Below the pieces are notes generated by a model. It worked only from the letters and a program-made list of their open reading frames with translations, did no database searches and was not told where the DNA came from. DNA of 64,000 nt from Firmicutes bacterium CAG:95 (GTDB taxonomy: Bacteria; Bacteroidota; Bacteroidia; Bacteroidales; Paludibacteraceae). Positions 10,559-52,202 of this stretch are shown here, piece by piece (position 1 is the stretch's first letter; each line of letters opens with the position of its first letter). A program made the translations under genes and the position numbers. The stretch spans positions 10,755 to 74,754 of the forward strand of contig CAVEFV010000002.1 in assembly GCA_963615025.1 (NCBI GenBank). The letters are read 5' to 3'.

Positions 10559-10703
10559 GGGAACGGTAACATATTGATTTCTCTGCGAAGGAGAGTCGAG
10601 AGCCATAGCACGCTATGGCTCTACAGCGGGCATAAACGATGATACCTTCGACGGGGAAACAGTGATGGTGTGAAGAGAGCCATAGCACGCTATGGCTCTA
10701 CAG
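10559..10703 (-). repeat. REP-like hairpin array, locus 1 (2 units, 77-nt period)
   Basis: Perfect palindromes AGAGCCATAGC-AC-GCTATGGCTCT at 10599-10622 and 10676-10699. Each is preceded on the minus strand by CTGT. The same units occur at 22.6 and 44.3-44.6 kb. Confidence 0.9.
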
Positions 10704-10787
10704 TTATTATCAATTAACAATTAACAATTAATAATTAATAAACCGAGAGGGCTATTTTGTAGGTTGTTGGTAGGTAGTTTGTAAGTT

Positions 10788-10831
10788 CTTCCTATATTCT
10801 TCCTATATTCTTCCTATATTCGTCGTATATA
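10788..10831 (-). repeat. 11-bp tandem array, locus 1 (4 units)
   Basis: CTTCCTATATT x3 then CGTCGTATATA. This is the reverse complement of the A(G/A)GA(C/T)GAATAT units at the other loci. Confidence 0.9.
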
Positions 10832-10840
10832 AAACCTTTG

Positions 10841-11100
10841 TAATATATAGGAATAATGGGGCTTGGCGGGAGGGAAGTTTGAGGGATTGGGAATTTAGGA
10901 GGGAGGAATGAGGATTAAAAGTGGAGAGTTGAAAGTTAATAGAAGTTTGGTATTGAGTGTATCAAGTAGAGGATAGAGGGGTTTACATAGTTGAGTGTTG
11001 AGAGTTGAGGGTTTAGTGCAGTTTAGCGTTGAGTGTTGATGAGTTTAGGGATTGATGAGTTTAGGGGAATTTGAGATTGAGGAAAGGGTGATGGTGTTGT
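10841..11100 (-). repeat. strand-asymmetric tract of the modular element (C-depleted on the + strand)
   Basis: By hand count there are only 6 C in 10861-11100 (240 nt). Internal direct repeat TTGATGAGTTTAGGG at 11036-11050 and 11052-11066. Confidence 0.8.
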
Positions 11101-11150
11101 AAAAAAACGGATTATGCATGGAATCGGTTGCATAATTACAGGAAAAGCCG

Positions 11151-11158
11151 TATCTTTG
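11151..11158 (+). promoter_or_regulatory. -7 promoter box TATCTTTG for ruvA
   Basis: Exact TAnnTTTG, 59 nt upstream of the ATG at 11217. Confidence 0.55.
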
Positions 11159-11216
11159 CCCCTTAAAAGGTATTTTTTACGAAAAAGTAAGGAATTATTA
11201 CAGAAAGGGATATGCT

Positions 11217-11819
11217 ATGATAGACTATATAAAAGGGACTTTGACCGAACTGACACCGACTTACGCTATTATTGAGGCTTGCGGTGTAGGTTATGATATA
11301 AATATCTCGTTGCCGACTTTTACGGCGTTGTCGGACAAGAAAGAGGATGTTCGTTTGTATATCAATGAGATTATCCGTGAAGATGCCCATTTGTTGTATG
11401 GTTTTATGAGTAAGCCCGAACGCTCGTTGTTTTTGTTGTTGATTAGTGTTTCTGGCATAGGTGCCAATACAGCCCGTATGATTATGTCGTCGTACACAGC
11501 ATCGGAGATTCGTCAGATTATCGCGACCGGTAATGCGCATGCGTTGTCGAGTATCAAGGGTATAGGAGCCAAGACTGCCCAGCGTATTATTGTGGAGTTG
11601 AAAGACAAGGTGTTGAAGATAGAGTTGGATGGTGGTTCGTTGGATAATGTTGTATCGGTGGATACGGTTGATAATGATTTGAAGCAGGAGGCCGTATCAG
11701 CCTTGATGATGCTCGGTTTCCAATCGTCGGCATCGTCGAAGGTGGTGGACAAGATATTGTCTGAAGACCCTCTTTGTTCGGTAGAGAAGGTTATTCGTAT
11801 TGCGTTGAAGATGTTGTAA
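11217..11819 (+). CDS. ruvA: Holliday junction DNA helicase subunit RuvA
   Basis: 200 aa. MIDYIKGTL...GVGYDINISL OB-fold start and helix-hairpin-helix motifs (VSGIGANTA, IKGIGAKTAQRI). Confidence 0.95.
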   Translation: MIDYIKGTLTELTPTYAIIEACGVGYDINISLPTFTALSDKKEDVRLYINEIIREDAHLLYGFMSKPERSLFLLLISVSGIGANTARMIMSSYTASEIRQIIATGNAHALSSIKGIGAKTAQRIIVELKDKVLKIELDGGSLDNVVSVDTVDNDLKQEAVSALMMLGFQSSASSKVVDKILSEDPLCSVEKVIRIALKML

Positions 11820-14800
11820 TCGTTGTAAGTCTGAAGCGTTTATTCCCCATAGGATTATTTCTTTTGTCGGTACCTGTATTCTGTCAGGTTCCTGAGGATT
11901 CCGTTGCTTTGCCGGAGCCGGTTCGTTCGGACAGTGTATTGTTTGCTCCTACCCGTGTGAAGCAGTATGAGGCGACGGATTATGAAGTTTTGTCGTCTCC
12001 TGCATCATCTATGGATTTGCAGGATCCGAACAATATCAAGACAGAGGTGGAATATCAGCCGTCGACGGGTTATTATATTATTCATACGAAGATAGGGGAT
12101 GTAGATATTGCTACGCCTTATCTGATGACGGAGAGTGAGTATGGTCAGTACTCGGCACAGCAGGCGATGTCCCGTTATTGGCAAGAGAAGATAAGCAAGG
12201 TTGAGCACAGTAACGAGAAGAAGTTCGACATCACAGATATGAAGTTCAACATCGGTCCGGCAGACAAAGTGTTTGGTCCCGGCGGTGTACAGTTGAAGTT
12301 ACAGGGTTCCGCCGAATTGATATTTGCCTTCAAACACCAGTACTTGGACAATCCTGCGTTGACACAACGAGGAAGGAATAACAATGTATTCGACTTTGAC
12401 GAGAAGATCCAATTGAATGTGAACGCATCGGTGGGGGACAAGTTGAAGTTTAATATGAACTACAACACGGAGGCCTCTTTTGATTTTGACCGACAGAATT
12501 TGAAGTTGAATTATCAGGGAAAGGAGGATGATATTATCCAGTCGTTGGAAGCAGGCAATGTGTCGATGAGTCTGAATAGTTCTCTTATCTCCGGAAGTCA
12601 GGCATTGTTTGGAATTAAAGCGAACTTGAAATTTGGGAAGTTGAGTATTCAAGCGTTGGTGTCGCAACAGAACTCGCAGAGTCAGACGGTGTCGTCAAAG
12701 GGTGGTGCGCAAACGACAGAGTTCGAGGTATCGGCGGACAGTTACGATGAGAACCGTCACTTCTTTCTGGGTCATTATTTCCGTGACACATACGAAAAGA
12801 ACATGGCTCAATTGCCATTTATTGCGTCAGGTGTGAACATTACCCGTATAGAGGTATGGATAACAAACAAGCGCGGACAGTATGACAATGCGCGTAATAT
12901 CATTGCCTTTACAGATTTGGGAGAGAACTCGGCGTCTCATATCAGCAGTACGCACTGGGTGCCGACGGAAGGTGTTGCTGTTCCGTATAACAGAGCGAAC
13001 AGTTTGTATCGTGAAGTGACGGGGTTGAGTGGTGTCCGTGATATACAACAGACGAATGTAGTATTGAGCAGTTTGGCGGGTTACGGTGTGATAGGTGGGG
13101 AGGATTACGAAAAGATAGAGTCGGCTCGTTTGTTGTCGAGTTCGGAATACACATTGAATGCTTCGTTGGGTTATATCTCGTTGAAGAGTGCATTGAACCA
13201 GGACGAGATATTGTGCGTTGCGTACGAATACACTTATAACGGTCAGGTGTATCAGGTAGGTGAGTTCTCTACGGATGCAGGGGAGGAGTTGAAGACGCCT
13301 AATGCGTTGATACTGAAGATGCTTAAGACCAGTTCAAATGCTCCTACGCAGAAGGGAAAAGGGACATGGGATCTGATGATGAAGAACGTCTATTCGATAG
13401 GCGCAATGCAGATGAGCCAGGAAAAGTTCGAGTTGTATGTGATGTACAAAAACGACTCTGTGGGTACGAGTATGCAATACATTTCGGAAGGGGATATAAA
13501 AGGACAGCAACTGCTTCGGGTAATGAATCTTGACCGTTTAGACCAGAAGAACAATGCCAACCCTGACGGAAAGTTTGACTATGTGGAAGGTTACACAGCG
13601 TTATCTTCCAACGGACGCATCATATTCCCTGTGTTAGAGCCTTTCGGCAGCCATCTTAAGAAGAAAATAAACAATCCCGCCATTGCAGAGAAGTATATTT
13701 TCCAGGAACTCTATGACTCTACTTTGGTGATAGCACAGGAGGTGTCGGAGAAGAACAAGTTTATGCTGGTGGGTAAGTACAAGGGTTCGTCGGGTAACGA
13801 GATCCGTCTGAATGCGATGAATGTTCCCCGTGGGAGTGTAAAGGTGACGGCAGGTGGAGCAGAGTTGGTTGAGAATGTGGACTATACGGTAGATTATGTA
13901 ATGGGAACGGTGACGATACTTAACCAGTCGATATTGGATGCGGGAACGAATGTGGATGTGAAGTTAGAGAATCAGTCGACCTTCTCTATGCAGCGTAAAT
14001 CGCTATACGGGACGCATATTGAGTATGCCTTTACTCCTGACTTTACGGTAGGTGGTACATTGATGCATCTTACGGAGCGTCCTTTGACGACGAAGGTGAA
14101 TACAGGCAGTGAGCCATTGTCGAATACAATATGGGGTTTGAACACCTCGTACAAGACGGAGTTCATGTGGTTGAGCAATGCATTGGATCGTATCCCATGG
14201 ATAACGGCGACGGCTCCTTCGACCTTGCAAGTGAATGCGGAGTTTGCCCATTTGATCCCCGGTCATACTCGCGATGTGGGTAAGGCAGGGTTGGCATATA
14301 TAGACGATTTTGAATCGACCAAGACCAATGTGGATATACACTATCCTACTTTCTGGAAGTTGAGTTCCACCCCGTCGTTCTTTGCGGAGTCGCAACTGAG
14401 CAACAATATCGAATATGGCAAGAACAGGGCTCGTATGGCGTGGTATATCGTTGACCCTATATTCGGTCACGCACAGAACAATACGCCTCAGCATATTCGA
14501 GACGATGTGAATATGTTGTCGGACCACAGGACTCGTATTGTGTATGAGCAGGAGATTTATCCGAACAAGGAGGTGTTAGCCACGGAGGATACTCGTTTGT
14601 CGATAATGAACATTTCGTTTTACCCAACAGAGCGCGGTCCGTATAATATCGTTGCCGATGAGATAGGCTCGGACGGTCGGTTGACTAATCCAGAGAAACG
14701 CTGGGGAGGTATGATGCGTAAGTTGGATAATACCGATTTTGAGACTTCGAATATCGAATATATAGAGTTCTGGATAATGGACCCGTTCCTTACCAATCCG

Positions 14801-17800
14801 GGCGCAGACTATGAGGGTGGCGATATATATATCAACTTGGGTGATGTGAGTGAGGATATTCTGAAGGACGGGAAAAAGTCGTTTGAGCATGGTCTTCCGA
14901 TCAGTGATACGGATGTGAACAGTACAGAGAATACAGTCTGGGGTCGTGTGCCTAAGACGACAAGCACCGTGATGGCTTTCTCGAACGAGAGTGGTGCGCG
15001 CGAGAAACAGGATGTGGGGCTTAACGGTCTGTCGACGGCAGATGAGTTCTTGTTTGAGTATAACGGTACGCGTCCTTATTCCGATTATGTGAATTCGTTG
15101 CGGGATAAGGTCTCTGCCGATGTTCGTAGCGCATGGGAGGCTGATCCGTTCTCGCCTCTTAACGACCCGGCAGGTGATAATTTTCACTATTATCGCGGGA
15201 GTGATTGGGACGAGCAGGAGGCGGATATCCTGACTCGATACAAGTACTTCAACGGGACAGAGGGAAACTCTCCTTCCACTGAGAACAGTTCGGAGACTTA
15301 TGGTACTGCTGCTACGCTACAACCCGATGTGGAGGATGTGAACATGGATAATACACTGAACGAGTATGAAAAGTATTATCAGTATCGCGTTCAGATTCGT
15401 CCAGGGATGTTGGAGGTAGGGCAGCAACATATCACAGAGAAGTTGGTGACAAAAGTTACCTTAGAGAATGGAAACACGGAGGAGGTAACATGGTATCAGT
15501 TTAAGATTCCTGTCCGTGAATATGACGACCGAGTAGGTACGATTCGTAACTTCAAATCGATACGCTTTATTCGTCTTTTCCTCACTAACTTTAAGCAGGA
15601 AACACACCTGCGTCTTGCTTCGCTTGACCTTGTTCGCGGGGAATGGCGTTCTTATACCAAGGACTTATATTCGACAACCGAACCGCCCAAGAGTTCGGCA
15701 TATATGGATGTGGAAGCCGTAAACATCGAGGAAAATGCCTCCCGTAGTCCGGTGAACTATGTATTACCTCCAGGTGTAAGTCGTCAGACCGATCCCGGTC
15801 AAGCGCAGTTGATTTCACAGAACGAACAGGCAATGGTGTTGCGTGTACATGAACTCTCCCCCGGTGATGCGCGTGCCGTATATAAGTCCACAGGATACGA
15901 TATGCGTAATTATAAGCGTCTGCAGATGTTTGTTCATGCTGAGGCACTGCGCGATGTTCCCGACCTTGCCGACCACGATTTGACTTGCTTCATCCGATTT
16001 GGGAGCGACCTGAAAAATAACTATTACGAATATGAGATTCCGCTTGTTCTCACACCGGAAGGTTTGTACAACAACGATGAAACTTCCGACCGAGAAAAGG
16101 TGTGGCCAACGGCTAATATGTTCGATTTTGCTTTCGATGTGCTGACCAATACGAAGTTGAAACGCAATAAAGCCAAACGAGCAGGGAACACAAATGTAAG
16201 CAACTCCATCCCCTATTCGGAATATGATACTGACTCTAACAAACCCGATAACAAGATTACCGTTATGGGTAACCCGACTTTAGGCGATGTGGAAAATATC
16301 ATGATCGGTATTCGTAACCGTGGACAGACTATCACCTCCGGCGAAATATGGGTCAACGAATTGCGCATGTCCGAATACAATGAGGATGGTGGTGTTGCTG
16401 CTATGGCGAATGTAGCCTTAGGCATCTCTGACATTGCGCAACTCAATATGGCAGGACGAATAGAGACTGCCGGCTACGGTTCGATTGAGAGTAATGTCTT
16501 GGACCGTAATATGGACAACAGTTACCAGTTCTCCGTCAGTGCGGCTTTGGAGGGTGGACGATTGTTTCCCGAACAAGCCAAGTTGCAGATCCCTCTCTAT
16601 GTGTCTTACACCAACGAGACCCTCTCTCCCAAGTACGACCCGTTGGACACCGACATAGAACTCAAAGAGAGTCTAAGTACCTACAACACAAAAACAGAGA
16701 GAGACTCTGTCAAGACCCTGTCCAATACCGTCCAAAAGAGTACAAACTTCTCGTTGAGTAGCGCAAAAATAAATATCCGCAGCAAGAAAAGAGATATGTT
16801 CTACGACCCTGCTAACTTCAACATATCCTATTCCTACGCCTTGCAAGATAAGCACAGTCCGGAAACGGAACACGACCTGCTGAAAGAGGAAAAAGGGTCA
16901 TTGAACTATTCATACAACTTCAATCCAAAACCATGGGAACCTTTTAAGAATAGCAAGAAGGTAGAGAAACTGAAATGGATCAAGGAACTGAATATCTACT
17001 ACCTGCCACAGAGTTGGGCGTTCTCTACCGATATGCAGCGTAGTTTCACCCAGATGAAGATGCGCGACCTGACAGGCGGGATGTCCTCCGACCCTATTTT
17101 CTCCAAAGACTGGATGTGGAATCGGAATTTTGACCTCAAATATGACCTGACCAAAACACTGAAGTTCTCTTTCCAGAGTGCGATGAACTCAACCGTAGAA
17201 GAGGGTACTCTCACTCCCGAAATCATTAAGGACTATAACTTTACCAACGACCACTACGAAGCATGGAAAGATACTGTCCTGCGCAGTCTGCGTACTATGG
17301 GGTCTCCTTACTCCTACCAACAGGTCTTCACGGCCTCCTATAGCGTACCATTCAATCGTTTCAAGGCTTTCGATTGGATGACCGCCACAGGAACTTACAA
17401 CGCCACATACAACTGGAACCGGACAGCACAAACAAGCGATGATAGTATCGACTATGGTAATGTCATCTCCTCTATGGCATCGTGGCAGGTGGACGGAGCA
17501 ATGAACTTCGAGTCGCTCTACAATAAATCCAAATACCTCAAAGGTGTCAACCAACGCTACTCCGGTCGGAACACCCGACGCGCTTTCCGTCCAAAGACCT
17601 ATACGCAGACTATTGCCGCAAAGGCTGACTCCACCATCGAGATTAACCATCGGCTCAACTCCGAGAATCTAAAGGTACAAGCAGTCGATGTCAACGGCAA
17701 GAAAGTAAGTATCAAGTACAAAACTGACGGTAAGGGTAAGATTCTATTGACTCCCAAAAAGAACTGCCCGAACCTGTCCATCACCATCACTACCAACGAC

Positions 17801-19261
17801 CCTAACTCGCGCACACCGGCTCAGATTGCCGGCGATTTGAGCGTACGCTTCCTAATGTTGGTTCGCAAAGCTCAGATAACCTATCGTGAGACCAACTCCC
17901 TCACCGTTCCCGGATTCTCTCCTCAGGTGGGCTTTATGGGAGAACGGAAGGTAGGCGACTACTACGCTCCGGGATTTGACTTTGCCTTTGGCTTTATCCC
18001 GACAGATTTTGTAGAGAAAGCAAAGGAACGCTATTGGTTGTCGCCCGACACTTCTGTCGTGCAGCCTGCTACACAAGCCAAGACAACTGACTTCAACCTT
18101 CGACTCACACTCGAACCCCTACCCGGACTGAAAATACAGATGAACGGACAACGATACACCTCTTCGGCTTCTTCCATCATCTACTCTTACGACCAACTGC
18201 AAGAAACCTTCACCGGCTCTTACAATATCACACAAGTAGCCATTGCCACCGCTTTTGATAAGATTGGTACTGCCGAACAGAACTACAACACGAAGTCTTT
18301 CGAACGATTCCTCAACTATCGCTCGACCATGCAGCAGCGATTGGAGAACGACTACACCTCCCTTTCCTATCCCGATGCAGGCTTTTTGAAAGGGACACCC
18401 ACTGCCAATACACCGTATAACCCCACCAAAGGAAGTGTCAATATCAACTCTGCCGATGTACTGATTCCTTCCTTCTTGGCAGCATACACAGGAAGAGACA
18501 TCAACAAGATACAAGCCAACCCCTTCCTGTCCATCTTGCAGATACTCCCTAACTGGAGCGTTACATTTGACGGACTGACTAAACTCCCGTGGATTAAAGA
18601 CCACTTCCGTTCAGTCAACATCACCCATGCCTATACCTGCAAATACAATATCGGAGCCTATAGCAGTTACTCCACATGGGTCCCCGCCATCGATAATAAT
18701 AACAAGTCCTATGGCTTCGTGCGCGATGTCACTACCGACAACCCTATACCCTCTTCCGCTTACGACATATCGAACATAAGCATCACCGAGCAGTTCTCTC
18801 CGCTCATCGGTCTTAATGTCGCCATGAAGAATTCACTCACCGCCAAGGTCGAGTACCGTAAACAACGCAACCTCACACTTAATGTTACCTCTGTGCAACT
18901 TATGGAGGGTGCTACCAACGAACTGGTAATAGGCTTGGGATATACAATCAAGGACTTCGATGTGATTATGAAACTGAAGAGCCAGAAGCAAACAAAGGTA
19001 AAGAACGACCTTAAGTTGAATGTTGATTTCTCCTACAAAGATGTCAAGACTCTGCTCCGTAAAGTAGAGGAGAATATCACCCAAGCCTCATCGGGTAACA
19101 AGGTTTTAGGCGTCAAGGTGTCTATCGATTATGTCCTGTCAAGTAAGGTCAACCTGCAACTCTTCTACGACCATCAAGGCACTACCCCGCTCATCTCCTC
19201 GTCCTATCCTATCAAGGCGGATAATGTCGGACTCAACATCAAACTTATGCTCACACGATAA
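11774..19261 (+). CDS. sprA: T9SS translocon / gliding-motility protein SprA
   Basis: 2495-aa single ORF. Size and composition match the giant SprA beta-barrel. A signal-peptide-like segment LKRLFPIGLFLLSVPVFCQ lies 20 aa after the only in-frame ATG. That start overlaps ruvA by 46 nt, so the start is uncertain. Confidence 0.9.
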   Translation: MFGREGYSYCVEDVVIVVSLKRLFPIGLFLLSVPVFCQVPEDSVALPEPVRSDSVLFAPTRVKQYEATDYEVLSSPASSMDLQDPNNIKTEVEYQPSTGYYIIHTKIGDVDIATPYLMTESEYGQYSAQQAMSRYWQEKISKVEHSNEKKFDITDMKFNIGPADKVFGPGGVQLKLQGSAELIFAFKHQYLDNPALTQRGRNNNVFDFDEKIQLNVNASVGDKLKFNMNYNTEASFDFDRQNLKLNYQGKEDDIIQSLEAGNVSMSLNSSLISGSQALFGIKANLKFGKLSIQALVSQQNSQSQTVSSKGGAQTTEFEVSADSYDENRHFFLGHYFRDTYEKNMAQLPFIASGVNITRIEVWITNKRGQYDNARNIIAFTDLGENSASHISSTHWVPTEGVAVPYNRANSLYREVTGLSGVRDIQQTNVVLSSLAGYGVIGGEDYEKIESARLLSSSEYTLNASLGYISLKSALNQDEILCVAYEYTYNGQVYQVGEFSTDAGEELKTPNALILKMLKTSSNAPTQKGKGTWDLMMKNVYSIGAMQMSQEKFELYVMYKNDSVGTSMQYISEGDIKGQQLLRVMNLDRLDQKNNANPDGKFDYVEGYTALSSNGRIIFPVLEPFGSHLKKKINNPAIAEKYIFQELYDSTLVIAQEVSEKNKFMLVGKYKGSSGNEIRLNAMNVPRGSVKVTAGGAELVENVDYTVDYVMGTVTILNQSILDAGTNVDVKLENQSTFSMQRKSLYGTHIEYAFTPDFTVGGTLMHLTERPLTTKVNTGSEPLSNTIWGLNTSYKTEFMWLSNALDRIPWITATAPSTLQVNAEFAHLIPGHTRDVGKAGLAYIDDFESTKTNVDIHYPTFWKLSSTPSFFAESQLSNNIEYGKNRARMAWYIVDPIFGHAQNNTPQHIRDDVNMLSDHRTRIVYEQEIYPNKEVLATEDTRLSIMNISFYPTERGPYNIVADEIGSDGRLTNPEKRWGGMMRKLDNTDFETSNIEYIEFWIMDPFLTNPGADYEGGDIYINLGDVSEDILKDGKKSFEHGLPISDTDVNSTENTVWGRVPKTTSTVMAFSNESGAREKQDVGLNGLSTADEFLFEYNGTRPYSDYVNSLRDKVSADVRSAWEADPFSPLNDPAGDNFHYYRGSDWDEQEADILTRYKYFNGTEGNSPSTENSSETYGTAATLQPDVEDVNMDNTLNEYEKYYQYRVQIRPGMLEVGQQHITEKLVTKVTLENGNTEEVTWYQFKIPVREYDDRVGTIRNFKSIRFIRLFLTNFKQETHLRLASLDLVRGEWRSYTKDLYSTTEPPKSSAYMDVEAVNIEENASRSPVNYVLPPGVSRQTDPGQAQLISQNEQAMVLRVHELSPGDARAVYKSTGYDMRNYKRLQMFVHAEALRDVPDLADHDLTCFIRFGSDLKNNYYEYEIPLVLTPEGLYNNDETSDREKVWPTANMFDFAFDVLTNTKLKRNKAKRAGNTNVSNSIPYSEYDTDSNKPDNKITVMGNPTLGDVENIMIGIRNRGQTITSGEIWVNELRMSEYNEDGGVAAMANVALGISDIAQLNMAGRIETAGYGSIESNVLDRNMDNSYQFSVSAALEGGRLFPEQAKLQIPLYVSYTNETLSPKYDPLDTDIELKESLSTYNTKTERDSVKTLSNTVQKSTNFSLSSAKINIRSKKRDMFYDPANFNISYSYALQDKHSPETEHDLLKEEKGSLNYSYNFNPKPWEPFKNSKKVEKLKWIKELNIYYLPQSWAFSTDMQRSFTQMKMRDLTGGMSSDPIFSKDWMWNRNFDLKYDLTKTLKFSFQSAMNSTVEEGTLTPEIIKDYNFTNDHYEAWKDTVLRSLRTMGSPYSYQQVFTASYSVPFNRFKAFDWMTATGTYNATYNWNRTAQTSDDSIDYGNVISSMASWQVDGAMNFESLYNKSKYLKGVNQRYSGRNTRRAFRPKTYTQTIAAKADSTIEINHRLNSENLKVQAVDVNGKKVSIKYKTDGKGKILLTPKKNCPNLSITITTNDPNSRTPAQIAGDLSVRFLMLVRKAQITYRETNSLTVPGFSPQVGFMGERKVGDYYAPGFDFAFGFIPTDFVEKAKERYWLSPDTSVVQPATQAKTTDFNLRLTLEPLPGLKIQMNGQRYTSSASSIIYSYDQLQETFTGSYNITQVAIATAFDKIGTAEQNYNTKSFERFLNYRSTMQQRLENDYTSLSYPDAGFLKGTPTANTPYNPTKGSVNINSADVLIPSFLAAYTGRDINKIQANPFLSILQILPNWSVTFDGLTKLPWIKDHFRSVNITHAYTCKYNIGAYSSYSTWVPAIDNNNKSYGFVRDVTTDNPIPSSAYDISNISITEQFSPLIGLNVAMKNSLTAKVEYRKQRNLTLNVTSVQLMEGATNELVIGLGYTIKDFDVIMKLKSQKQTKVKNDLKLNVDFSYKDVKTLLRKVEENITQASSGNKVLGVKVSIDYVLSSKVNLQLFYDHQGTTPLISSSYPIKADNVGLNIKLMLTR

Positions 19262-19302
19262 AGCCACCTGCTACCCCCTCTAACCGACAGACATATACAA
19301 CC

Positions 19303-19335
19303 GGAAGCCTGTCCGATAATAAAAATCAGCCTTCC
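19303..19335 (+). terminator. possible terminator hairpin after sprA
   Basis: GGAAGCCTG/CAGCCTTCC stem (8 of 9 pairs) with a 15-nt loop and no clear U-tract. Confidence 0.3.
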
Positions 19336-19446
19336 GCTTCGTTGGTACTTGCCACCTGTTCCGAAGGATTTATAGTAGAATGGGAATCGGCATAATATTC
19401 ACTTTGCAATCCGGAAATAAACACGGTGCCTGCATTTCTCTACCTG

Positions 19447-22578: not shown

Positions 22579-22920
22579 CTGTAGAGCCATAGCGTGCTAT
22601 GGCTCTCTGCGTGGCTTCTTGCGTGGCAATATGTTTGATAATCCTTTGCCCGTCGTCTGTAACTTCGTTTAGGCTAACTGTAGAGCCATAGCGTGCTATG
22701 GCTCTCAACTCCCTTTTGCAGAACAAACAATATGTTCCCCTCCAACCTATGTAAACCCCTCAATAGATCAATATTATTTGGCTATTATTTGATTATTATT
22801 TGTTCCTTGTTTGTCCGTCCCATACCCGTCGTCTGTAACTTCGTTTAGGCTAACTGTAGAGCCATAGCGTGCTATGGCTCTCGACTTCCTTCCGCAGACA
22901 GAACAATGTGTTACCGTTTT
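22579..22920 (+). repeat. REP-like hairpin array, locus 2 (3 units)
   Basis: CTGT + AGAGCCATAGC-GT-GCTATGGCTCT at 22583-22606, 22682-22705 and 22858-22881. An exact 29-nt pre-hairpin repeat CCCGTCGTCTGTAACTTCGTTTAGGCTAA lies at 22649-22677 and 22825-22853. Confidence 0.9.
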
Positions 22921-23049
22921 ACCTATATTGACAACTCCTATCAACTATTTACTTTCAACCATCAAACTTTAATATCCATTCTTCTATCCTATTTCCCTCT
23001 TTCCTCTAAACTCCCCTCCGCAAAGCCCTATATTTACTACCATTTCCAA

Positions 23050-23104
23050 AGGATTGATATAGGACGAATATAAGACGAATATAGGATGAATATAGAACGA
23101 ATAT
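23050..23104 (+). repeat. 11-bp tandem array, locus 2 (5 units)
   Basis: Units in order: AGGATTGATAT, AGGACGAATAT, AAGACGAATAT, AGGATGAATAT, AGAACGAATAT. Confidence 0.9.
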
Positions 23105-23360
23105 AGAAATCACATTCCACAATCACCCCAAAATCATCCAATCAACAATCATAAAATTATTAAAATTTTTAGATTCAATCACTCGTTCAACTATATCCCC
23201 TATATCAACCATAAACGCCATACATCCAGTACACATCTCGCATATCAATTATCAATAAAGTATGGATAGTAGGAACAATAAGGATGTGTCTAAACTCTAC
23301 TGCACACCCCTTTCCATAAAATATCCATATAGGGGTACTAAGTATGATGTTATAAAATAC

Positions 23361-24104
23361 CTATATAGCCTTTATTGTATGATACACTTTGCGAATAAAA
23401 TTCTCATAATCATTCAGAATGATAGAACTACCAAAATCAGAATAGTGGTTTGTACTTACTCGGATTTGTGTATTGCATTGTGTGTAAAAGTCCATATACT
23501 CTTTGTCAGTTTTCCCCAACAACGCATCATTGTTTGGAATATGTACCACATACAAAAGTGTCTTGTTGGGCGTATGGAAAAATCTGTCCACATTATCGTG
23601 CGATAAGGTAATATATTTAGCGGCATTATGCTCCGTGAATGTTTCCCACTTAGCAATTCGTTTATCTCTCTTATAATAGGGCAATCGGTCTAAGATAATG
23701 AATATCTGAAAATACGGGCAATTATTAGCGCGTATATTAGCAGTCTCGCCTAACATATTTTCGAAGTAGTTATTTGAATTCTGCGAATAATTCTGCATTA
23801 TAAATTTTACGGCAATGCCGGCAATCGGCATATTTGTATCTGATTCACATATAGTCACATCCACCTTCTTATCTACATACCTCCCTTGTATATTCCCCTC
23901 TCTATCATCCTCCCACCCTTGTGAATGCACACAATATCCTATTCCCAACCGCAGAGACAAGTCTTTGGCTATAGCACCGTGTAATGGTTTCAATTTAGCC
24001 GTACTACGGGATGTCCCTGACTGAAGGAACTCGCAAAACGAATTGGAGATTACATCAAGAAATCCATTATTACTCAATGGAAAAGAGATCTCTTTGCTTT
24101 TCAT
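23361..24104 (-). CDS. putative type II restriction endonuclease (family not recognised)
   Basis: 247-aa ORF overlapping the 3' end of the methyltransferase gene by 35 nt. Very AT-rich. Has a candidate PD-(D/E)XK-like segment (VDKKVDVTI...IAGIAVKF). The assignment rests on context. Confidence 0.55.
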   Translation of the reverse strand: MKSKEISFPLSNNGFLDVISNSFCEFLQSGTSRSTAKLKPLHGAIAKDLSLRLGIGYCVHSQGWEDDREGNIQGRYVDKKVDVTICESDTNMPIAGIAVKFIMQNYSQNSNNYFENMLGETANIRANNCPYFQIFIILDRLPYYKRDKRIAKWETFTEHNAAKYITLSHDNVDRFFHTPNKTLLYVVHIPNNDALLGKTDKEYMDFYTQCNTQIRVSTNHYSDFGSSIILNDYENFIRKVYHTIKAI

Positions 24105-35376: not shown

Positions 35377-35420
35377 TTCGTCCTATATTCATCCTATATT
35401 CGTCCTATATTCATCCTTTG
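35377..35420 (-). repeat. 11-bp tandem array, locus 3 (4 units)
   Basis: Units in order: TTCGTCCTATA, TTCATCCTATA, TTCGTCCTATA, TTCATCCTTTG. This is the reverse-complement orientation. Confidence 0.9.
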
Positions 35421-35494
35421 AAACAGGCAGTATTTATCGGGCTTGACGGATGGTGAGTTTTTCGTTTTGGGGTTGAATAGGTATGCTTTCGGGC
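35415..35494 (-). repeat. conserved core of the modular element, locus 3
   Basis: 73 of 80 nt identical to the reverse complement of 52071-52150. Confidence 0.9.
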
Positions 35495-39710: not shown

Positions 39711-41105
39711 ATGTCGTATCATCAATCAACAGCACTATTATTCATTTTAGCCATCTTTGTCGCATGTAACGGAGGTAATGTAATAGACGACCCGCGTCGG
39801 GAGGACTACGATACAACAAAGATTCACGAAGATACAACATGGGCGCGTGTTTCGATGCAGCGTTCTGTTACGGGTGTGCAGCCTATGACGGGATTAGTTC
39901 TTTGGACCGATTATGCAGAGGAATTGCATTCGAGATATGGTCAATCGATCTCGTTGGAGTATTCTTATTGTCTTCCCTGTAAAGTGGTTACGGGTAAGAC
40001 GGGCGATGAGATACAATACGATTGGTCTTCGTTCGACGAGATGTTAGATGGCATTGCCGCTCGTGGGCATCAGGCTATTGTGCGCTTTCGGTATGAGTAT
40101 CCGAGTGGTACGGATGTGGATGGCAAAAAGGGGACAACAGCAGTGCCTGCCTATATCAAAGCATTGCCCGATTATCACGAGACCTATAGCAAGAACCCTG
40201 GAGGTGACGGACCTACCTATTATGCTGACTGGAGTAATGCAGAACTGCAGTGGTTCACTACACAATTCTATACAGATTTCAACGAACGATATGGCAACGA
40301 TTCTCGTCTGGCTTTCATAGAAGTTGGTTTCGGGCATTGGTCGGAATACCATACCTATGGTACAGATGTTCAATTAGGAATCAATTTCCCCTCAAAAGCG
40401 TATCAAACAGCCTTCTTACAACATCTTGCCACAACAATGACTATCCCGTGGTCGGTAAGTATTGATGCTGCCGATACAGACTACTCCCCTATAACCGAGA
40501 ACAACATCTTGATGAACTTGAACTTCGGTTTGTTCGACGATTCATTTATGCACAAACAGCACGATAAAGTGCAAGGTGAGGGGTATAACGAAGAGTGTTG
40601 GCTCGCTTTAGATACCACCCGATGGAAAAGAGGCGTGTGTGGTGGCGAAATCAGTTATTATGCCGACAAAGACCAACGCAACTTCCTCAATCCCAATGGA
40701 ATGTATGGTGTTACATGGGAAGCAGCATCGGCCAAGTATCACATCACATTCATGATTGCCAACGATGCGCCTGAAACCACCTATGGAACCCCCGAACGCT
40801 TCAGAGAGGCAAGTATGCAATGTGGTTATCATTTCAAGGTACTCGACTGCCTGACTAACAGCACCGAGACAAAAGTCCTTGTCAAGAATACTGGCATTGC
40901 GCCACTCTATAGAGATGCCTATTTTTCCATCAACAATTCTCGCAGCGAAGAGTCTTTGCGCGGACTGCTGCCGGGTGAACGCAAACTAATTCTCATCAAG
41001 CAACCACTAACCAACGAGCAAGATTTGTGTATCGTGTCCGACGCTATAGGGACACAACAGAAGATTGAATATGAATGCAGCATACACGCCAAAGGGACTG
41101 AATAA
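39711..41105 (+). CDS. lipoprotein, glycoside-hydrolase-like TIM-barrel (DUF4832-like); function uncertain
   Basis: The ATG at 39711 gives MSYHQSTALLFILAIFVAC with a lipobox. FIEVGFGHWSEYH resembles GH-clan TIM barrels. Confidence 0.55.
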   Translation: MSYHQSTALLFILAIFVACNGGNVIDDPRREDYDTTKIHEDTTWARVSMQRSVTGVQPMTGLVLWTDYAEELHSRYGQSISLEYSYCLPCKVVTGKTGDEIQYDWSSFDEMLDGIAARGHQAIVRFRYEYPSGTDVDGKKGTTAVPAYIKALPDYHETYSKNPGGDGPTYYADWSNAELQWFTTQFYTDFNERYGNDSRLAFIEVGFGHWSEYHTYGTDVQLGINFPSKAYQTAFLQHLATTMTIPWSVSIDAADTDYSPITENNILMNLNFGLFDDSFMHKQHDKVQGEGYNEECWLALDTTRWKRGVCGGEISYYADKDQRNFLNPNGMYGVTWEAASAKYHITFMIANDAPETTYGTPERFREASMQCGYHFKVLDCLTNSTETKVLVKNTGIAPLYRDAYFSINNSRSEESLRGLLPGERKLILIKQPLTNEQDLCIVSDAIGTQQKIEYECSIHAKGTE

Positions 41106-42414: not shown

Positions 42415-42420
42415 CTTACT

Positions 42421-43986: not shown

Positions 43987-44008
43987 ACCCCAAGCCAACA
44001 ACCTCATC

Positions 44009-44036
44009 CTCGTGCCGTACTCCTGTGCGGCACGAG
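44009..44036 (+). terminator. terminator hairpin after the GH43 gene
   Basis: 9-bp GC-rich stem CTCGTGCCG/CGGCACGAG with a 10-nt loop and no clear U-tract. Confidence 0.5.
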
Positions 44037-44117
44037 TGATATATCTCCAAATCCCCCGTCCTGCACCCTCCTTAAAAGTAACCCATCGCCAACGCCCGTC
44101 ATTCCTATGTATTTCAA

Positions 44118-44172
44118 AGGTTTAATATAGGATGAATATAGGACGAATATAAGACGAATATAGGATGAATAT
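44118..44172 (+). repeat. 11-bp tandem array, locus 4 (5 units)
   Basis: Units in order: AGGTTTAATAT, AGGATGAATAT, AGGACGAATAT, AAGACGAATAT, AGGATGAATAT. Confidence 0.9.
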
Positions 44173-44271
44173 ATCATGATGTGACGAGGTATATACAAAA
44201 TTGTGACGAAATACGATACCTAATCCATACTTGTCAAATTGTAAATTATCCAATTGTCAATTCCATATACT

Positions 44272-44620
44272 GACTGCAAAACCATACCATGCTATGGCTC
44301 TCTTCACACCATCTCCATTTGCCCATCAAATGGATCATCGTTTATGCTCGCTGTAAAACCATACCATGCTATGGCTCTCTTCACACCATCTCCGTTTGCT
44401 TATCAAATGTAACATCGTTTATGCTCGCTGTAGAGCCATAGCGTGCTATGGCTCTCAACTCTCCTTCGCAGACTAAACAATATGTTACCCTCACACCTCT
44501 ATAATCCCCACCAATGCACAACCATCAACGATGCGACTTTCATATTGGCTGTAAAACCATACCATGCTATGGCTCTCAACTCTCCTTCACAGAACAAACA
44601 ATATGTTCCCGTTAAACCTA
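44272..44620 (+). repeat. REP-like hairpin array, locus 4 (4 head-to-tail units; spacings 79, 77 and 121 nt)
   Basis: Hairpins at 44276-44299, 44355-44378 and 44553-44576 are the degenerate variant AAAACCATACCATGCTATGGCTCT. The hairpin at 44432-44455 is the perfect AGAGCCATAGCGTGCTATGGCTCT form. Confidence 0.9.
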
Positions 44621-44712
44621 ATTAACCCTTTCAACCAATTAAACAACACTACTATAAACCCACAACTTTTCTCAATCTCGCAGAAACATTTGTACAACCA
44701 ACCAAAAATCTG

Positions 44713-44720
44713 TAACTTTG
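44713..44720 (+). promoter_or_regulatory. -7 promoter box TAACTTTG for the FKBP pair
   Basis: Exact TAnnTTTG, 45 nt upstream of the ATG at 44765. Confidence 0.5.
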
Positions 44721-44764
44721 CACGAATTTTGTAGTGTAAAACCAACAAAGACAAATAGACAATC

Positions 44765-45349: not shown

Positions 45350-45371
45350 TTCTTAATAATATTATAAAGCA

Positions 45372-46634: not shown

Positions 46635-46663
46635 CTCTGAGCAACAAGCCGCAATCATACAAC

Positions 46664-46694
46664 AAGCCCGCTTCCCACATCGGGGAGTGGGCTT
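46664..46694 (+). terminator. terminator hairpin after the FKBP pair
   Basis: 13-bp stem AAGCCCGCTTCCC/GGGGAGTGGGCTT (two G-U pairs) with a 5-nt loop. Confidence 0.65.
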
Positions 46695-46732
46695 ATTGGT
46701 AAAAGAGAATACTGTTACCTTCAACCTGCACA

Positions 46733-48993: not shown

Positions 48994-49150
48994 TCTTTCA
49001 CCCCACCACCAATTCCCACGAACACCATGCAGGTAAACAGATGCTTGCTGACGGCTGTTTTCCCCCTTTTTTCTCCCTATTTCCTACCTCCTTTGCCAAT
49101 TCATTGTATTAAAGTGGCAAATAATACACGCTACCCCAAAAGCAATAACC

Positions 49151-49158
49151 TACCTTTG
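49151..49158 (+). promoter_or_regulatory. -7 promoter box TACCTTTG for the GH28 gene
   Basis: Exact TAnnTTTG, 42 nt upstream of the ATG at 49200. It lies only 12 nt from the 49170 ATG, which favours the 49200 start. Confidence 0.5.
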
Positions 49159-49199
49159 CCACCGTATAAATGTTTATTTTTGTTACCACTTTTAATGCA

Positions 49200-50744
49200 A
49201 TGATGAAAACACTCCTTCCGACACTCTTGTCCGTCTTGATACTGCTTTCTTCATGTCAAGAACATTCTACTTATCAGCAAATTACGCAGCAACAAGTAAA
49301 CAATATCCTTGCTTCTGCATCTATGAATATGCCCGCCATCACGCTGCCTGCTATCCCCGATCGAACCTTCAATGTACTGGATTACGGGGCAAACAACGAC
49401 GGCTCCGAACTGTCCACTGAGGCAATCCAGTCCGCCATCGATAGGGCAGGCGAGGCAGGCGGAGGCACAGTCATCATCCCCGCAGGGGTGTACCTTACAG
49501 GTCCCATCGTCCTGCGCTCCAACATCCGTCTGTATGCCGAGCAAAATGCCTTGGTCATCTTTTCCTCCGACTTTTCGCTCTACCCCATAGTCGATGCCAT
49601 CTTCGAAGGGGTCGATACCAAGCGTTGTCAATCCCCCATCAGTGCTTCCAATGCCGAGAATATCGCCATCTGCGGACAAGGCACCTTCGATGCTTCCGGC
49701 GATGCATGGCGACCACTACGGCGCGCTAAGGCTACCGCCAAACAGTGGAAAAAACAAGTAGAGTGTGGCGGTGTCGTGTCCGAAGATGGTAAGACCTGGT
49801 ACCCCGACGAGAATGCCCTGTATGCACAGACCCTCTGTGTCGATCAGAATGTGCCGGTTAATGTCCCCAATTGGGATTCCATACAGTCCTTTCTCCGTCC
49901 CGTACTGCTCAACTTCGTCAACTGTAAGAACATCCTTCTGGAAGGCGTATGCTTCGAGAACTCGCCCGCATGGAACCTACACCCCCTCATGTGCGAGAAC
50001 CTTGTACTCAACAATCTCACAGTACGCAATCCGTGGTATTCTCAAAACGGAGACGGAGTCGATGTCGAATCATGCACGAATGTACTCATCAACCATTGCG
50101 TATTCGATGTGGGCGACGATGCTATCTGCATGAAATCCGGTAAGAACGAAGACGGTCGCCGTCGCGCTATGCCTACCGAGAATGTCCTTATCAAAGCCTG
50201 TACGGTTTACCACGGGCATGGAGGCTTTGTCGTAGGAAGCGAAATGTCCGGCGATGTGCGCAAGATAGAGGTGTCCGACTGCCTGTTCATCGGTACCGAT
50301 GTGGGTCTGCGCTTCAAATCTACTCGTGGCAGAGGAGGTGTTGTAGAGGATATTTACATCAAGAATATCAATATGGCAGCCATCGAAAACGATGCCCTTA
50401 CCTTCGACCTCTTCTATGGAGGCAAAGGGGTAGGGGAGGAATCCGACAAAGAAATAGCCGAGCGTATGGCTGCACAAGTTCCAGCCGTCACCGAAGAAAC
50501 ACCTGTATTCCGCAACATAACCATTCAAGATGTGATCTGCAAAGGAGCCGACAGGGCAATCTACTTCAATGGCTTACCCGAGATGAAGATACAGAATGTC
50601 TCTTTGAGCAATATCCGTATGACCGCACAACAAGGGGCTATCTTCCGATATACCAACGGGCTGACACTCAACAATGTCCTCATTCATGCTACCGAAGGAC
50701 AAGACATGGAATTTGTAGAGGTTGATAATGTCGTGCAAGACTAA
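49200..50744 (+). CDS. glycoside hydrolase family 28 (polygalacturonase-like) lipoprotein
   Basis: MMKTLLPTLLSVLILLSSC lipobox. GH28 motifs NGDGVDVES, GDDAICMKSG, GHGGFVVGSE and RFKSTRGRGG. Confidence 0.9.
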   Translation: MMKTLLPTLLSVLILLSSCQEHSTYQQITQQQVNNILASASMNMPAITLPAIPDRTFNVLDYGANNDGSELSTEAIQSAIDRAGEAGGGTVIIPAGVYLTGPIVLRSNIRLYAEQNALVIFSSDFSLYPIVDAIFEGVDTKRCQSPISASNAENIAICGQGTFDASGDAWRPLRRAKATAKQWKKQVECGGVVSEDGKTWYPDENALYAQTLCVDQNVPVNVPNWDSIQSFLRPVLLNFVNCKNILLEGVCFENSPAWNLHPLMCENLVLNNLTVRNPWYSQNGDGVDVESCTNVLINHCVFDVGDDAICMKSGKNEDGRRRAMPTENVLIKACTVYHGHGGFVVGSEMSGDVRKIEVSDCLFIGTDVGLRFKSTRGRGGVVEDIYIKNINMAAIENDALTFDLFYGGKGVGEESDKEIAERMAAQVPAVTEETPVFRNITIQDVICKGADRAIYFNGLPEMKIQNVSLSNIRMTAQQGAIFRYTNGLTLNNVLIHATEGQDMEFVEVDNVVQD

Positions 50745-52017
50745 ATTCATAACCCACCTCATCGCACTTGCTGCACTGTGCCTGTCCATGCCTGCCATCC
50801 AAGCACAGACTCCTCTGCCGTGTGCCTCCCTGCAAGGCAATAGCCCCGTCACGCTCGCCTGTTGCCCCGTTATCATCCCCCTCGATAGTCTCTCTCAAAT
50901 ACCTGTCGGGCAGCGGAACAATCTTGTCGTCTTTGTCAACGGCAACGAAGTGCCATCGCAATGCGACGATACCAATGGCGATAACATCCCTGACGAAATA
51001 GCCTTCCTGCTCTCGCTCCATAAGAACCAACCCTACACCATCCAAATACAGGCAACAGAGGACAAAACTTACTACCCCGCTCTTGTCTGGGCGGAGATGT
51101 ATCGCAAAGGCAATATCGGTGGCGAATATCGCCAACACACCGCCGAAGGAAAAACCTACGGCATCAAACCCGTAACGCAACAGACGTTCTACCCCGCCGA
51201 TAAGTCCTTCCGACTCATGCACCACCACGGAGTAGCCTTCGAGTCCGAACTCATGGCGTACCGTATTTACTTCGACGCACGCCAAACCATCGATGTCTAT
51301 GCCAAACGCCATCCCCAATTGGAACTTCAACAATCCCTTTGGTATCCCGACGATAGCCTGCTCGCTCTCGGCTATGGCGACGATGTACTCAAAGTCGCAA
51401 ACACCATCGGAGTAGGTTCAGTCCGTCCCTGTCAAGGAAATAAACTGCAAAAGATAGAACCCTTTACCTCTCGCACACAGCGTATCATCGCCAATGGTCC
51501 CGTTCGCACAATAGTCGAGGTCGAAGTCAATGGATGGCAGCCCCGACCTGCCTCTCCCGATGCACTCACCATGCGGGTACGCTACACCCTTTTTGCGCAC
51601 CACCGCGATGTCTTCTGCGAGGTGTTCCTTTCCGATACCCTCTCCTCCTTGGTCAGCGGCGTACAGCGTGTCGGGGAAGGGGAATATCGTTATCTGAACC
51701 GTTCCGTCGCCTCGTGGGGTACCGACTGGCCTGTCAACGATACCGTCAAATACCCAAAAGAAACAGTCGGGCTTGCCGTCTGTGTACCCCAAGAATACTA
51801 TTGCGGTCAGGTTGTCAACCGGCATAATGCCCTCATCCGATTCCAACCCTCCCGCTATCTGTGCTTCCACCTCACCGTCGTAAGCCAAAAAGAAAACACC
51901 CCGCCTGCTGCTTCGTCCCGACAGTTTTGGCACTTCGTCAAGCAATGGGAAAAACAACTGTCCCGCGAGCAGACACTCCGACGCCAACTCCTGTCCACTC
52001 ACCATCCCGCTCCCTGA
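50722..52017 (+). CDS. secreted protein, DUF4861-like (pectin-utilisation context)
   Basis: 431 aa with a signal peptide. Overlaps the GH28 stop by 23 nt. The family call is from memory of DUF4861 neighbours of GH28 genes. Confidence 0.5.
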   Translation: MIMSCKTKFITHLIALAALCLSMPAIQAQTPLPCASLQGNSPVTLACCPVIIPLDSLSQIPVGQRNNLVVFVNGNEVPSQCDDTNGDNIPDEIAFLLSLHKNQPYTIQIQATEDKTYYPALVWAEMYRKGNIGGEYRQHTAEGKTYGIKPVTQQTFYPADKSFRLMHHHGVAFESELMAYRIYFDARQTIDVYAKRHPQLELQQSLWYPDDSLLALGYGDDVLKVANTIGVGSVRPCQGNKLQKIEPFTSRTQRIIANGPVRTIVEVEVNGWQPRPASPDALTMRVRYTLFAHHRDVFCEVFLSDTLSSLVSGVQRVGEGEYRYLNRSVASWGTDWPVNDTVKYPKETVGLAVCVPQEYYCGQVVNRHNALIRFQPSRYLCFHLTVVSQKENTPPAASSRQFWHFVKQWEKQLSREQTLRRQLLSTHHPAP

Positions 52018-52070
52018 CAACTCCTTTCCCGTAAGACAATAGAAAGTTAAAGACTCTAAATCTCCAACCT

Positions 52071-52150
52071 ACCCAAAAGCATACCTGTTCAAACCCAAAA
52101 CGACAAACTCACCATCCGTCAAGCCCGATAAATACTGCCTATTTCGAAGG
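52071..52150 (+). repeat. conserved core of the modular element, locus 5
   Basis: Reverse complement is 73/80 identical to 35415-35494. Confidence 0.9.
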
Positions 52151-52202
52151 TTTTATATAGGATGAATATAGGATGAATATAAGACGAATATAAGATGAGT
52201 AT
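52148..52202 (+). repeat. 11-bp tandem array, locus 5 (5 units)
   Basis: Units in order: AGGTTTTATAT, AGGATGAATAT, AGGATGAATAT, AAGACGAATAT, AAGATGAGTAT. Confidence 0.9.

Follow-up and report, generated by a model that had tools for sequence, protein, structure and literature searches.

A strand-oriented mosaic repeat with an 11-bp phased array in intergenic spacers of a Prevotella-like group

Results

Six copies of a modular element in 64 kb

The window analysed here, a stretch of 64 kb from contig CAVEFV010000002.1, carries a modular non-coding element in its intergenic spacers, and the orientation of this element follows the local GC skew, not the direction of genes. The genes around the loci are ordinary: they encode a nucleotidyl transferase (mannose-1-phosphate guanylyltransferase-like), RuvA, SprA, a DUF4294 protein, an AAA_28 protein, a tRNA, GH43, FKBP, a DUF4861 protein and LepA. 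No transposase or recombinase gene flanks the loci, and no Rep/ParR-type, partition or regulator gene is adjacent to them. As the initial annotation had stated, the loci have no terminal inverted repeats in common, the hairpin described below being the only inverted repeat that they share. The same annotation had proposed an ordered, strand-oriented family of five loci. All the sequences and coordinates quoted for these loci were re-read and are present in the window, and the family is real; in 64 copies from three genomes the modules keep their order and occur together.

Common to the five loci are a core, a linker with CAAAGG or CGAAGG, and 3.7-4.5 tandem copies of an 11-bp unit (ATATAGGAYGA). 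Tandem Repeats Finder recovered the tandem units at every locus (10786-10830, 23057-23106, 35377-35417, 44124-44173 and 52155-52204), and a degenerate pattern of two and a half units matched nine times in the window, compared to 0.00 expected from 100 shuffles. A profile built on the core and linker of 60 copies picked exactly the five loci (E values of about 1e-13 to 1e-17; 6e-13 for locus 3) and a weak relic at 19314. The five quoted loci therefore stand, and the total of five does not: with the decayed copy at 19314-19390 the window holds six copies, about one per 11-13 kb.

Locus 1 lies on the minus strand. Its core (AAACTTCCCTCCCGCCAAGCCCC at 10880-10858) and linker, ending in CAAAGG, occupy 10831-10891 (profile match 10815-10891, E 2e-14) and are followed by 4.1 copies of the 11-bp unit (ATATAGGAAGA; 10786-10830), found both as a tandem repeat and by the array pattern. 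Downstream come an AT-rich array of the TTAATTG type (10706-10738; period 7, 4.7 copies) and, within 10595-10703, two head-to-tail hairpin units (10595-10626 and 10672-10703), recognised as a repeat family and by folding, each consisting of GTAG, a 10-bp stem and a 4-nt loop. The relic (19314-19390, plus strand; profile E 1.2e-3) reads CCTTCCGCTTCG...TTCCGAAGGATTTATAGTAGAATGGGAATCGG in its core-like part and lies in the spacer after sprA. Locus 2 (plus strand) begins with three members of the hairpin family (22579-22610, 22678-22709 and 22854-22885, together spanning 22579-22885), between which Tandem Repeats Finder detects an array of the 11-nt unit TATTATTTG (22772-22802). Its core (AAACTCCCCTCCGCAAAGCCCT) and linker follow at 22998-23056 (E 6e-16), and then 4.5 copies of the 11-bp unit at 23057-23106 (tandem repeat and pattern), the distal ones decayed by G to A changes.

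Locus 3 (minus strand) consists of core (AAACTCACCATCCGTCAAGCCCG) and linker at 35418-35465 (E 6e-13) and 3.7 array units at 35377-35417 (tandem repeat and pattern). Locus 4 (plus strand) is complete, with core (AAAGTAACCCATCGCCAACGCCCG) and linker at 44067-44123 (E 1e-13), 4.5 array units at 44124-44173, a second AT-rich 7-bp array detected by Tandem Repeats Finder at 44231-44262, and four units of the hairpin family within 44274-44580 (44274-44305, 44351-44382, 44428-44459 and 44549-44580). A 77-nt tandem duplication at 44274-44456 (2.4 copies, 90% matches) takes in the first three of these units and thus multiplies the hairpin. Three of the four hairpins are unpaired through G to A and G to C changes, all in the 5' arm. 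Locus 5 (plus strand) has the same core sequence as locus 3 (AAACTCACCATCCGTCAAGCCCG), with its linker at 52098-52154 (E 6e-17) and 4.5 array units at 52155-52204 (tandem repeat and pattern), of which the distal ones are again decayed by G to A. The hairpin unit (CTGTAGAGCCATAGCGTGCTATGGCTCTC) thus occurs nine times in the window, twice at locus 1, three times at locus 2 and four times at locus 4; all nine copies are arranged head-to-tail and oriented as the local core, which bears out the hairpin module as first described for these three loci.

A conserved architecture in two related bins

An array-pattern scan of species-representative genomes returned at least 59 stretches. Among the matches listed, all but one belong to two metagenome bins, "Bacteroidaceae bacterium" (CAVEIE01) and Prevotella sp. 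P5-108 (CAVHKB01); the remaining match, in a Clostridium, is due to chance. Both bins come from close relatives of the organism of the window, as five blocks align at 85-92% identity. Because the bins are fragmented and were read as 8-kb blocks containing an array (L001-L059), estimates of density from them are biased. In 510 kb of sampled sequence the profile identified 64 core copies.

All copies have the same order: a core of about 22 nt (consensus AAAACTCCCCTCCGCCAAGCCC), about 25 nt ending in CAAAGG or CGAAGG, and the array; the conserved unit measures at least 100 nt. Within the array unit ATATAGGAYGA, the heptamer TATAGGA is almost invariant over 293 units. Copies carry two to five exact heptamers (mode four; a single exception has seven), and the distance from heptamer to heptamer is 11 bp in 161 of 164 cases. 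A copy-number range this narrow and a phasing this strict are unlike a neutral minisatellite; they suggest that the heptamers may be the binding platform of a protein forming oligomers on one face of the helix.

The downstream modules are optional. In the 51 copies with enough sequence, the AT-rich 7-bp array is present in 21 and hairpins in 23, and the array lies upstream of the hairpin in all 17 copies carrying both, so that the proposed order did not dissolve when more copies were included. In the 510 kb, 61 hairpin units were counted. Of 60 units compared with their core, 58 are oriented as the core and 59 lie within 650 nt of one, mostly 165-300 nt downstream. These units sit in long intergenic spacers that also carry a core; the one exception is 7.4 kb away. 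Every copy whose gene context was examined is in an intergenic spacer.

The mosaic has further modules in the CAVEIE bin, namely an 11-nt-phased CTAGAT array, a GC-rich hairpin and a palindromic block of about 190 nt. The palindromic block (TTTCGGCCTTGTGTCGGTGCGTCAAAAAT ... ATTTTTGGCAACGCCCGACACACAGCCG) is conserved in L007 (minus strand, offset 3433), L018, L026, L027, L042 and L055. It is nested in the CAVEIE mosaic, has the appearance of a separate insertion similar to miniature inverted-repeat transposable elements (MITEs), and is absent from the window. The 11-nt period recurs outside the main array, in the array between the hairpins at 22772-22802 (TATTATTTGNN) and in a CTAGATYYYY array of the CAVEIE bin (L019, about 3100-3200, minus strand). 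In the P5-108 bin many contigs start or end within the element (L003, L008, L028, L033, L040, L041 and L045); its repeats fragment short-read assemblies of these organisms.

The element is absent from 81 sprA loci of more distant Bacteroidales (at most 73% protein identity). These loci were found with a 541-aa segment of SprA, by protein relatives of up to 70% identity and by a metagenome scan giving 80 loci of up to 73%. No match to the element was found among plasmid records, phage records or viral contigs, and a plasmid, phage or virus origin was rejected for lack of similarity to their records. The element sequences were not found in the searchable literature. As far as these searches show, this is a multi-module interspersed family of gut and rumen Prevotella that has not been described.

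Orientation follows the local strand asymmetry

The window displays a very strong strand bias that is independent of the strand of the genes, the AT skew being opposite to the GC skew. The third-position GC skew of the plus strand is +0.1 to +0.5 from 1 to 16 kb, -0.2 to -0.4 from 16 to 24 kb, about 0 from 24 to 30 kb, +0.25 to +0.5 from 30 to 40 kb and -0.2 to -0.5 from 40 to 64 kb. Its magnitude reaches 0.3-0.6, and its sign changes three times in 64 kb. The only skew-free stretch (24-30 kb) includes a gene for an Eco57I-like N6 DNA methylase (24070-25512), which would fit recently acquired DNA.

In all six copies of the window, the G-poor strand of the element is the locally C-rich strand. 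The element strand contains 10-13% G and 25-31% C, with G-free runs of up to 96 nt. The relation extends to the related bins. When skew was measured over 3 kb on each side, the nearest 600 nt excluded, it was negative in the orientation of the element for 59 of 65 copies. Among open reading frames that have 250 codons or more and lie no further than 3 kb from a copy, the orientation of the element predicts the sign of the third-position skew in 96% of the 92 co-oriented genes and in 94% of the 66 anti-oriented genes.

Spacers without the element also follow the skew of their flanks (r 0.72, mean signed skew 0.20), and spacers that carry it are more extreme (0.36). The G-depleted tract had been listed as the first module of the element. 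Because the same strand bias is found in element-free spacers and at third, synonymous coding positions, this tract is largely unconstrained DNA under local mutation pressure and is not a module.

Along the longer CAVEIE contigs the element keeps a coherent orientation, with seven of seven copies over 176 kb and six of eight over 233 kb, which is the pattern expected of a polarity at the level of replichores. The two exceptions in the 233-kb contig are the orthologs of loci 1 and 3 of the window; the positive-skew stretches of the window are therefore conserved islands of minority polarity. The element shares a strong orientation bias with polar replichore motifs and is not, as they are, a short oligomer that is spread over coding and non-coding DNA alike and read by a translocase or nuclease.

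In most bacteria it is the G-rich strand that leads. Among the housekeeping genes that could mark the leading strand, only recA, lepA and ftsZ were found, and their signs are mixed. Within 3 kb of the copies (window and L001-L059), 92 genes lie on the C-rich strand compared to 66 on the G-rich strand, in a sample that is biased. If genes prefer the leading strand, this biased sample would make the C-rich strand the leading one in this clade, the reverse of the usual rule.

Hairpin units have the form of REPs and vary by decay

As single-stranded DNA, the hairpin unit folds into a 10-bp stem with a 4-nt loop (CGTG) at -10 to -13 kcal/mol (z -2.7 to -3.2); the stem is of 8 bp if the AG of GTAG is left out. 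GTAG lies directly 5' of the palindrome, and in 59 copies its G, T and A columns are invariant or at least 90% conserved, the last G being present in about 80%. REPs have been defined by GT[AG]G at 0-2 nt from a 7-20 bp stem with a 2-5 nt loop (PMC6006769). The tetranucleotide, the stem and the loop are all within these limits, and the unit is present in many intergenic copies. REPs typically form inverted pairs, head-tail dimers being rare among their families (PMC3733652); here, every cluster of hairpins is head-to-tail. Units never alternate as do the palindromic units of BIMEs, and they stand among conserved modules of fixed order.

The initial annotation could not assign the element to any described family. 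This was borne out as regards Rfam 15, in which no match at the loci attained the gathering score, hits at E values up to 1 being chance matches to eukaryotic snoRNAs and miRNAs well below threshold. It did not hold for the hairpin, which fits the published definition of REPs, and the element as a whole resembles interspersed mosaics of other bacteria.

Variation among 59 hairpins breaks pairs in 38 cells and compensates in one, which is no better than in shuffles. The changes are concentrated in the 5' arm, the 3' arm (GCTATGGCTCTC) being nearly invariant. Because broken pairs outnumber compensated ones to this extent, the variation is the decay of copies of a master sequence, and not that of an RNA helix selected in each copy. 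The stretch formed by core and array folds worse than shuffled sequence (z +0.8 to +1.6). A structured RNA, one of the possibilities raised at the outset, thus finds no support.

REP-associated-type Y1 transposases occur in Bacteroidetes (PMC6006769), and GTAG-type REPs had not been reported from this phylum as of 2013 (PMC3733652). A Y1/HUH transposase gene, which in REP systems is single-copy and has REPs on its flanks, was found neither beside the copies nor elsewhere in the sampled 510 kb; the sole open reading frame with an HUH-like motif encodes an acyltransferase.

Copies are retained at orthologous sites and homogenised within the genome

Orthologous sites were compared between species that differ by 8-15% in flanking DNA, and eight of eight were occupied. 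The interiors of orthologous copies are 66-77% identical compared to 90-92% for their flanks, and their structure also changes. At locus 1 an interior of 66% identity to the ortholog, with large indels and different numbers of hairpins, lies between flanks of 92% identity; the modules present also differ between L019 and L031. Copies of the same genome are more alike than orthologs: loci 3 and 5 are 88% identical, compared to 75% for locus 3 and its ortholog, and loci 1 and 4 are 83% identical, compared to 75% for locus 1 and its ortholog. The copies evolve in concert, through ectopic conversion or in-place replacement, and sequence therefore still moves between them, although no new insertion was observed.

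Changes of skew sign inside genes

Two of the sign changes in the window lie inside genes. The first (about 15.9-16.5 kb) is in sprA (11774-19261; PF14349, E 5e-215), an intact conserved gene, and the second (about 40.1-40.25 kb) is in a lipoprotein gene (about 39711-41105), some 500 nt into the gene. Inversion between copies of the element was rejected as their cause, as they lie within genes and not at elements. The change at 40.2 kb is conserved in the CAVEIE ortholog. The identity profile across it is flat, with no sign of recombination after the species split, and this candidate was also rejected. Sign changes inside genes could arise by homologous replacement if the donor lineage has the opposite replication orientation. 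In L041, from the P5-108 bin, the sign changes within about 10 nt of a synteny breakpoint (L041 position 2908, corresponding to window position 20200).

Among the 81 element-free relatives, most have weak or uniform skew and none has a comparably strong sign change within sprA; three show moderate extremes of opposite sign, up to ±0.25. G to A changes at G sites of the array consensus were seen at 0 of 60 sites in island copies and 26 of 819 in others, a sample too small to be useful. Substitution counts against orthologs (third positions and four-fold sites) are unpolarised, there being no outgroup, and do not separate a skew at equilibrium from a decaying one. Gene order differs between the genomes: window positions 3223-10507 correspond to 248-256 kb of CAVEIE contig 2 and the segment 25.8-41.4 kb to 144-128 kb of the same contig, so that two segments 15-25 kb apart in the window lie more than 100 kb apart there.

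Gene context of the loci

The transferase gene and ruvA have divergent promoters, with locus 1 in the space between these; in the ortholog the two promoter regions are conserved, unlike the element that separates them. Ahead of ruvA (11217-11819, plus strand) there is a Bacteroidetes-type promoter at 11128-11160 (plus strand), and the open reading frame at 11163-11540 (minus strand) is probably no gene. At loci 1, 4 and 5, promoter boxes of this type (TTG...TAnnTTTG) are present between the element and the next start codon, which places the element outside the interval from promoter to start codon at the loci whose downstream promoter can be recognised. Locus 3 is oriented into a convergent gene, at its 3' end. 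For these reasons a role as 5' leader was rejected. A general promoter on the G-rich strand, suggested by CCTTTG, the complement of the linker, was also rejected, as TTCG or another variant stands in place of TTTG in roughly two of every five copies (40%) and a -33 box is missing. Loci 4 and 5 begin right after co-oriented upstream genes. Overall the direction of genes is loosely related to the element, about 58-75% of neighbouring genes being co-oriented (58% within 3 kb).

At the start of the window, two SAM-I/IV riboswitch aptamers (207-308 and 1463-1564, minus strand) are located inside similar stretches of about 300 nt (8-304 and 1265-1560) that are 1256 nt apart, which suggests a duplicated riboswitch-controlled unit.

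Discussion

A proposed strand-specific renewal of the mosaic repeat

Our preferred explanation is that of a non-coding mosaic repeat of long spacers, whose array would be bound by a protein and whose copies would be renewed strand-specifically; to this account as a whole we give about even chances. The family, its architecture, its polarity, its retention and its homogenisation are established by the data: the obligatory unit is the core of about 22 nt, the linker and two to five TATAGGA heptamers 11 bp apart, with the AT-rich array and then the REP-like hairpins as options. The phased array would be bound along one helix face by an oligomeric DNA-binding protein encoded by the host or by the element. 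Copies would be renewed by strand-specific copying or conversion on single-stranded DNA, which would fix their orientation relative to fork movement, and the enzyme involved may be a REP-associated Y1/HUH protein acting on the hairpin. Selection for one orientation relative to fork movement is another candidate source, and either process would account for the polarity. The G-poor tracts would be unconstrained spacer, brought to an extreme state by the strand-specific mutation pressure under which the neighbouring genes are skewed as well.

Several observations weigh against this account. Firstly, none of the eight orthologous comparisons revealed an empty site, which would have spoken for mobility and marked the ends of the element. 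Secondly, no transposase or Y1/HUH gene lies near the copies or in the sampled sequence, and REPs normally form inverted pairs, whereas these hairpins are head-to-tail. Thirdly, if the G-rich strand leads, the strand bearing GTAG is the leading-strand template, the opposite of the simplest insertion by Y1 enzymes, into the lagging-strand template. Finally, the full retention at orthologous sites, the narrow range of heptamers and the near-invariant 3' arm of the hairpin are at least as compatible with a selected host function as with a selfish repeat.

Such a function could be that of a polar site of chromosome architecture, with a clade-specific protein acting on the core and phased array, and copies kept for working and not for spreading. 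The process served would read the direction of replication (directional DNA translocation, fork handling, recombination control or supercoil management), as in the case of KOPS, Chi, Ter or gyrase-binding BIMEs. Occupancy of all eight sites despite the divergence of their flanks speaks for it, as do the almost invariant heptamer and phasing with a copy number kept within two to five, the agreement of about 95% with local skew, an orientation coherent over more than 100 kb, and a density in the window of about one copy per 11-13 kb. However, known polar motifs are short oligomers scattered through genes and not variable mosaics of 0.2-1 kb, orthologous interiors diverge faster than their flanks and are restructured, half of the copies are devoid of the hairpin and AT-rich modules, and no candidate binding protein was identified. 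We consider this explanation, the main rival, unlikely.

A transcribed cis-acting RNA appears less probable again. It could be an unstructured Rho-loading tract or 3'-UTR module, or a family of small RNAs or protein sponges displaying repeated AGGA. The C-rich, G-poor composition of the element strand and the poor folding of core and array would suit a Rho-utilisation site, loci 4 and 5 start right after co-oriented genes, and a majority of neighbouring genes are co-oriented. Against this, orientation tracks skew and not genes, as the anti-oriented genes demonstrate; the promoters on either side of locus 1 diverge, and the gene ahead of locus 3 is convergent; and there is no Rfam match even at an E value of 1 and no covariation in the hairpin.

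Slightly further down in probability is a causal role, in which the elements themselves generate the local asymmetry, for example by a nick on one strand from which long-range excision or mismatch correction would extend over several kb in either direction, fixing lesions of the un-nicked strand. If this were true, the chromosome would be split into polarity domains of about 10-25 kb set by the orientation of the nearest element, and GC-skew sign changes inside intact genes such as sprA would be explained. The oriented skew does peak beside the element and fades by 4-6 kb on both sides. Between neighbours of opposite orientation, the sign changes at 0.29-0.54 of the interval in six of seven intervals, the one from locus 1 to locus 2 of the window giving 0.44, or 0.67 when measured to the 19.3-kb relic. 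Moreover, two sign changes lie within intact conserved genes and are not producible by inversion, one of the two has been kept in a species whose four-fold sites have diverged by about 25%, and the element-free relatives have no sprA sign change of comparable strength, three of them having moderate extremes of opposite sign of up to ±0.25. On the other side, the tendency towards the midpoint is only suggestive (p estimated at about 0.07, n = 7), the sign change of L041 is at a synteny breakpoint as plain rearrangement predicts, and uniform orientation over 176 kb in one contig fits ordinary replichore polarity. In addition, the skew between co-oriented neighbours is not consistently weaker midway, and homologous replacement from an oppositely replicated lineage could also yield sign changes inside genes. 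An ordinary MITE derived from a DDE insertion sequence and enclosing a minisatellite, on the lines of BrickBuilt of Porphyromonas gingivalis (PMC4596501), would agree with the present element being intergenic, high in copy number, from Bacteroidales and built of a tandem array between conserved leader-like and tail-like sequences. It is very improbable, given that the five loci share no terminal inverted repeats, that the orientation bias is strong where DDE-derived elements normally have none, that no presence/absence polymorphism was seen at eight orthologous sites and that no similarity to plasmid or phage records was found.

Families of this kind are known mainly from Proteobacteria, pneumococci and Neisseria, and gut and rumen Prevotella are dominant yet poorly studied. 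The core and its 11-bp-phased array point to a putative DNA-binding protein with probably hundreds of chromosomal sites. As its orientation is coupled almost perfectly to skew, the family offers a ready means of marking the polarity of replication in metagenome bins that are fragmented, and islands of polarity bordered inside conserved genes bear on how strand asymmetry arises and persists.

Comparison with known systems

The IS200/IS605 elements and their miniature derivatives are likewise strand-oriented and without terminal inverted repeats; they have no target duplications and use subterminal hairpins (PMC6006769). Hairpins at both ends and a cognate TnpA, which those elements have, were not seen for the present one. 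KOPS and Chi resemble it in an orientation tied to replication-associated strand asymmetry and differ in being 8-mers found throughout genes. Pho boxes (PhoB/OmpR-type), the 11-bp iterons of R1 parC and the iterons of plasmid origins also present a 7-bp word at an 11-bp period on one helix face, a likeness that offers a lead only. As in iteron-type origins and partition sites, phased direct repeats here lie beside an AT-rich tract, which follows the array in 21 of 51 copies (about 40%). In contrast to those arrays, the flanks are housekeeping genes, with neither an adjacent Rep/ParR-type gene nor a plasmid or phage context, and the sites probably number hundreds per genome. BrickBuilt has the same build of leader, tandem repeats and tail in intergenic DNA of a member of the Bacteroidales, but its terminal inverted repeats and IS-related ends have no equivalent here and its unit is of 23 nt instead of 11 (PMC4596501), which makes it a loose analogue only.

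The closest parallels are with the interspersed mosaics of other bacteria. Like the BIME and REP-REPIN-RAYT systems of Proteobacteria, the element is a high-copy intergenic mosaic of few modules, lacks terminal inverted repeats, has GTAG at the base of a short perfect stem closing a 4-nt loop, and consists of copies that decay without compensation and become homogenised inside each genome. Host proteins, IHF and gyrase among them, bind to BIMEs. The differences are that the hairpins are head-to-tail in the present element, that its core and phased TATAGGA array have no REP counterpart, and that no RAYT gene is present in the sample; we know of no REP coupling to strand skew as strong as that seen here. 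BOX of Streptococcus pneumoniae (boxA-boxB(n)-boxC) and NIME of Neisseria are modular intergenic repeats whose function is largely unknown. By their descriptions, they have in common with the element a fixed module order with a tandem module of variable number, or variable blocks set apart by arrays of short repeats; they are related to it neither in sequence nor in host, and the phased heptamer array and the skew polarity are not known from those families. Our best reading is thus a clade-specific interspersed mosaic repeat of a small Prevotella-like group, of the general kind of BIME, BOX and NIME, and unusual among them for its phased heptamer array and near-complete polarity.

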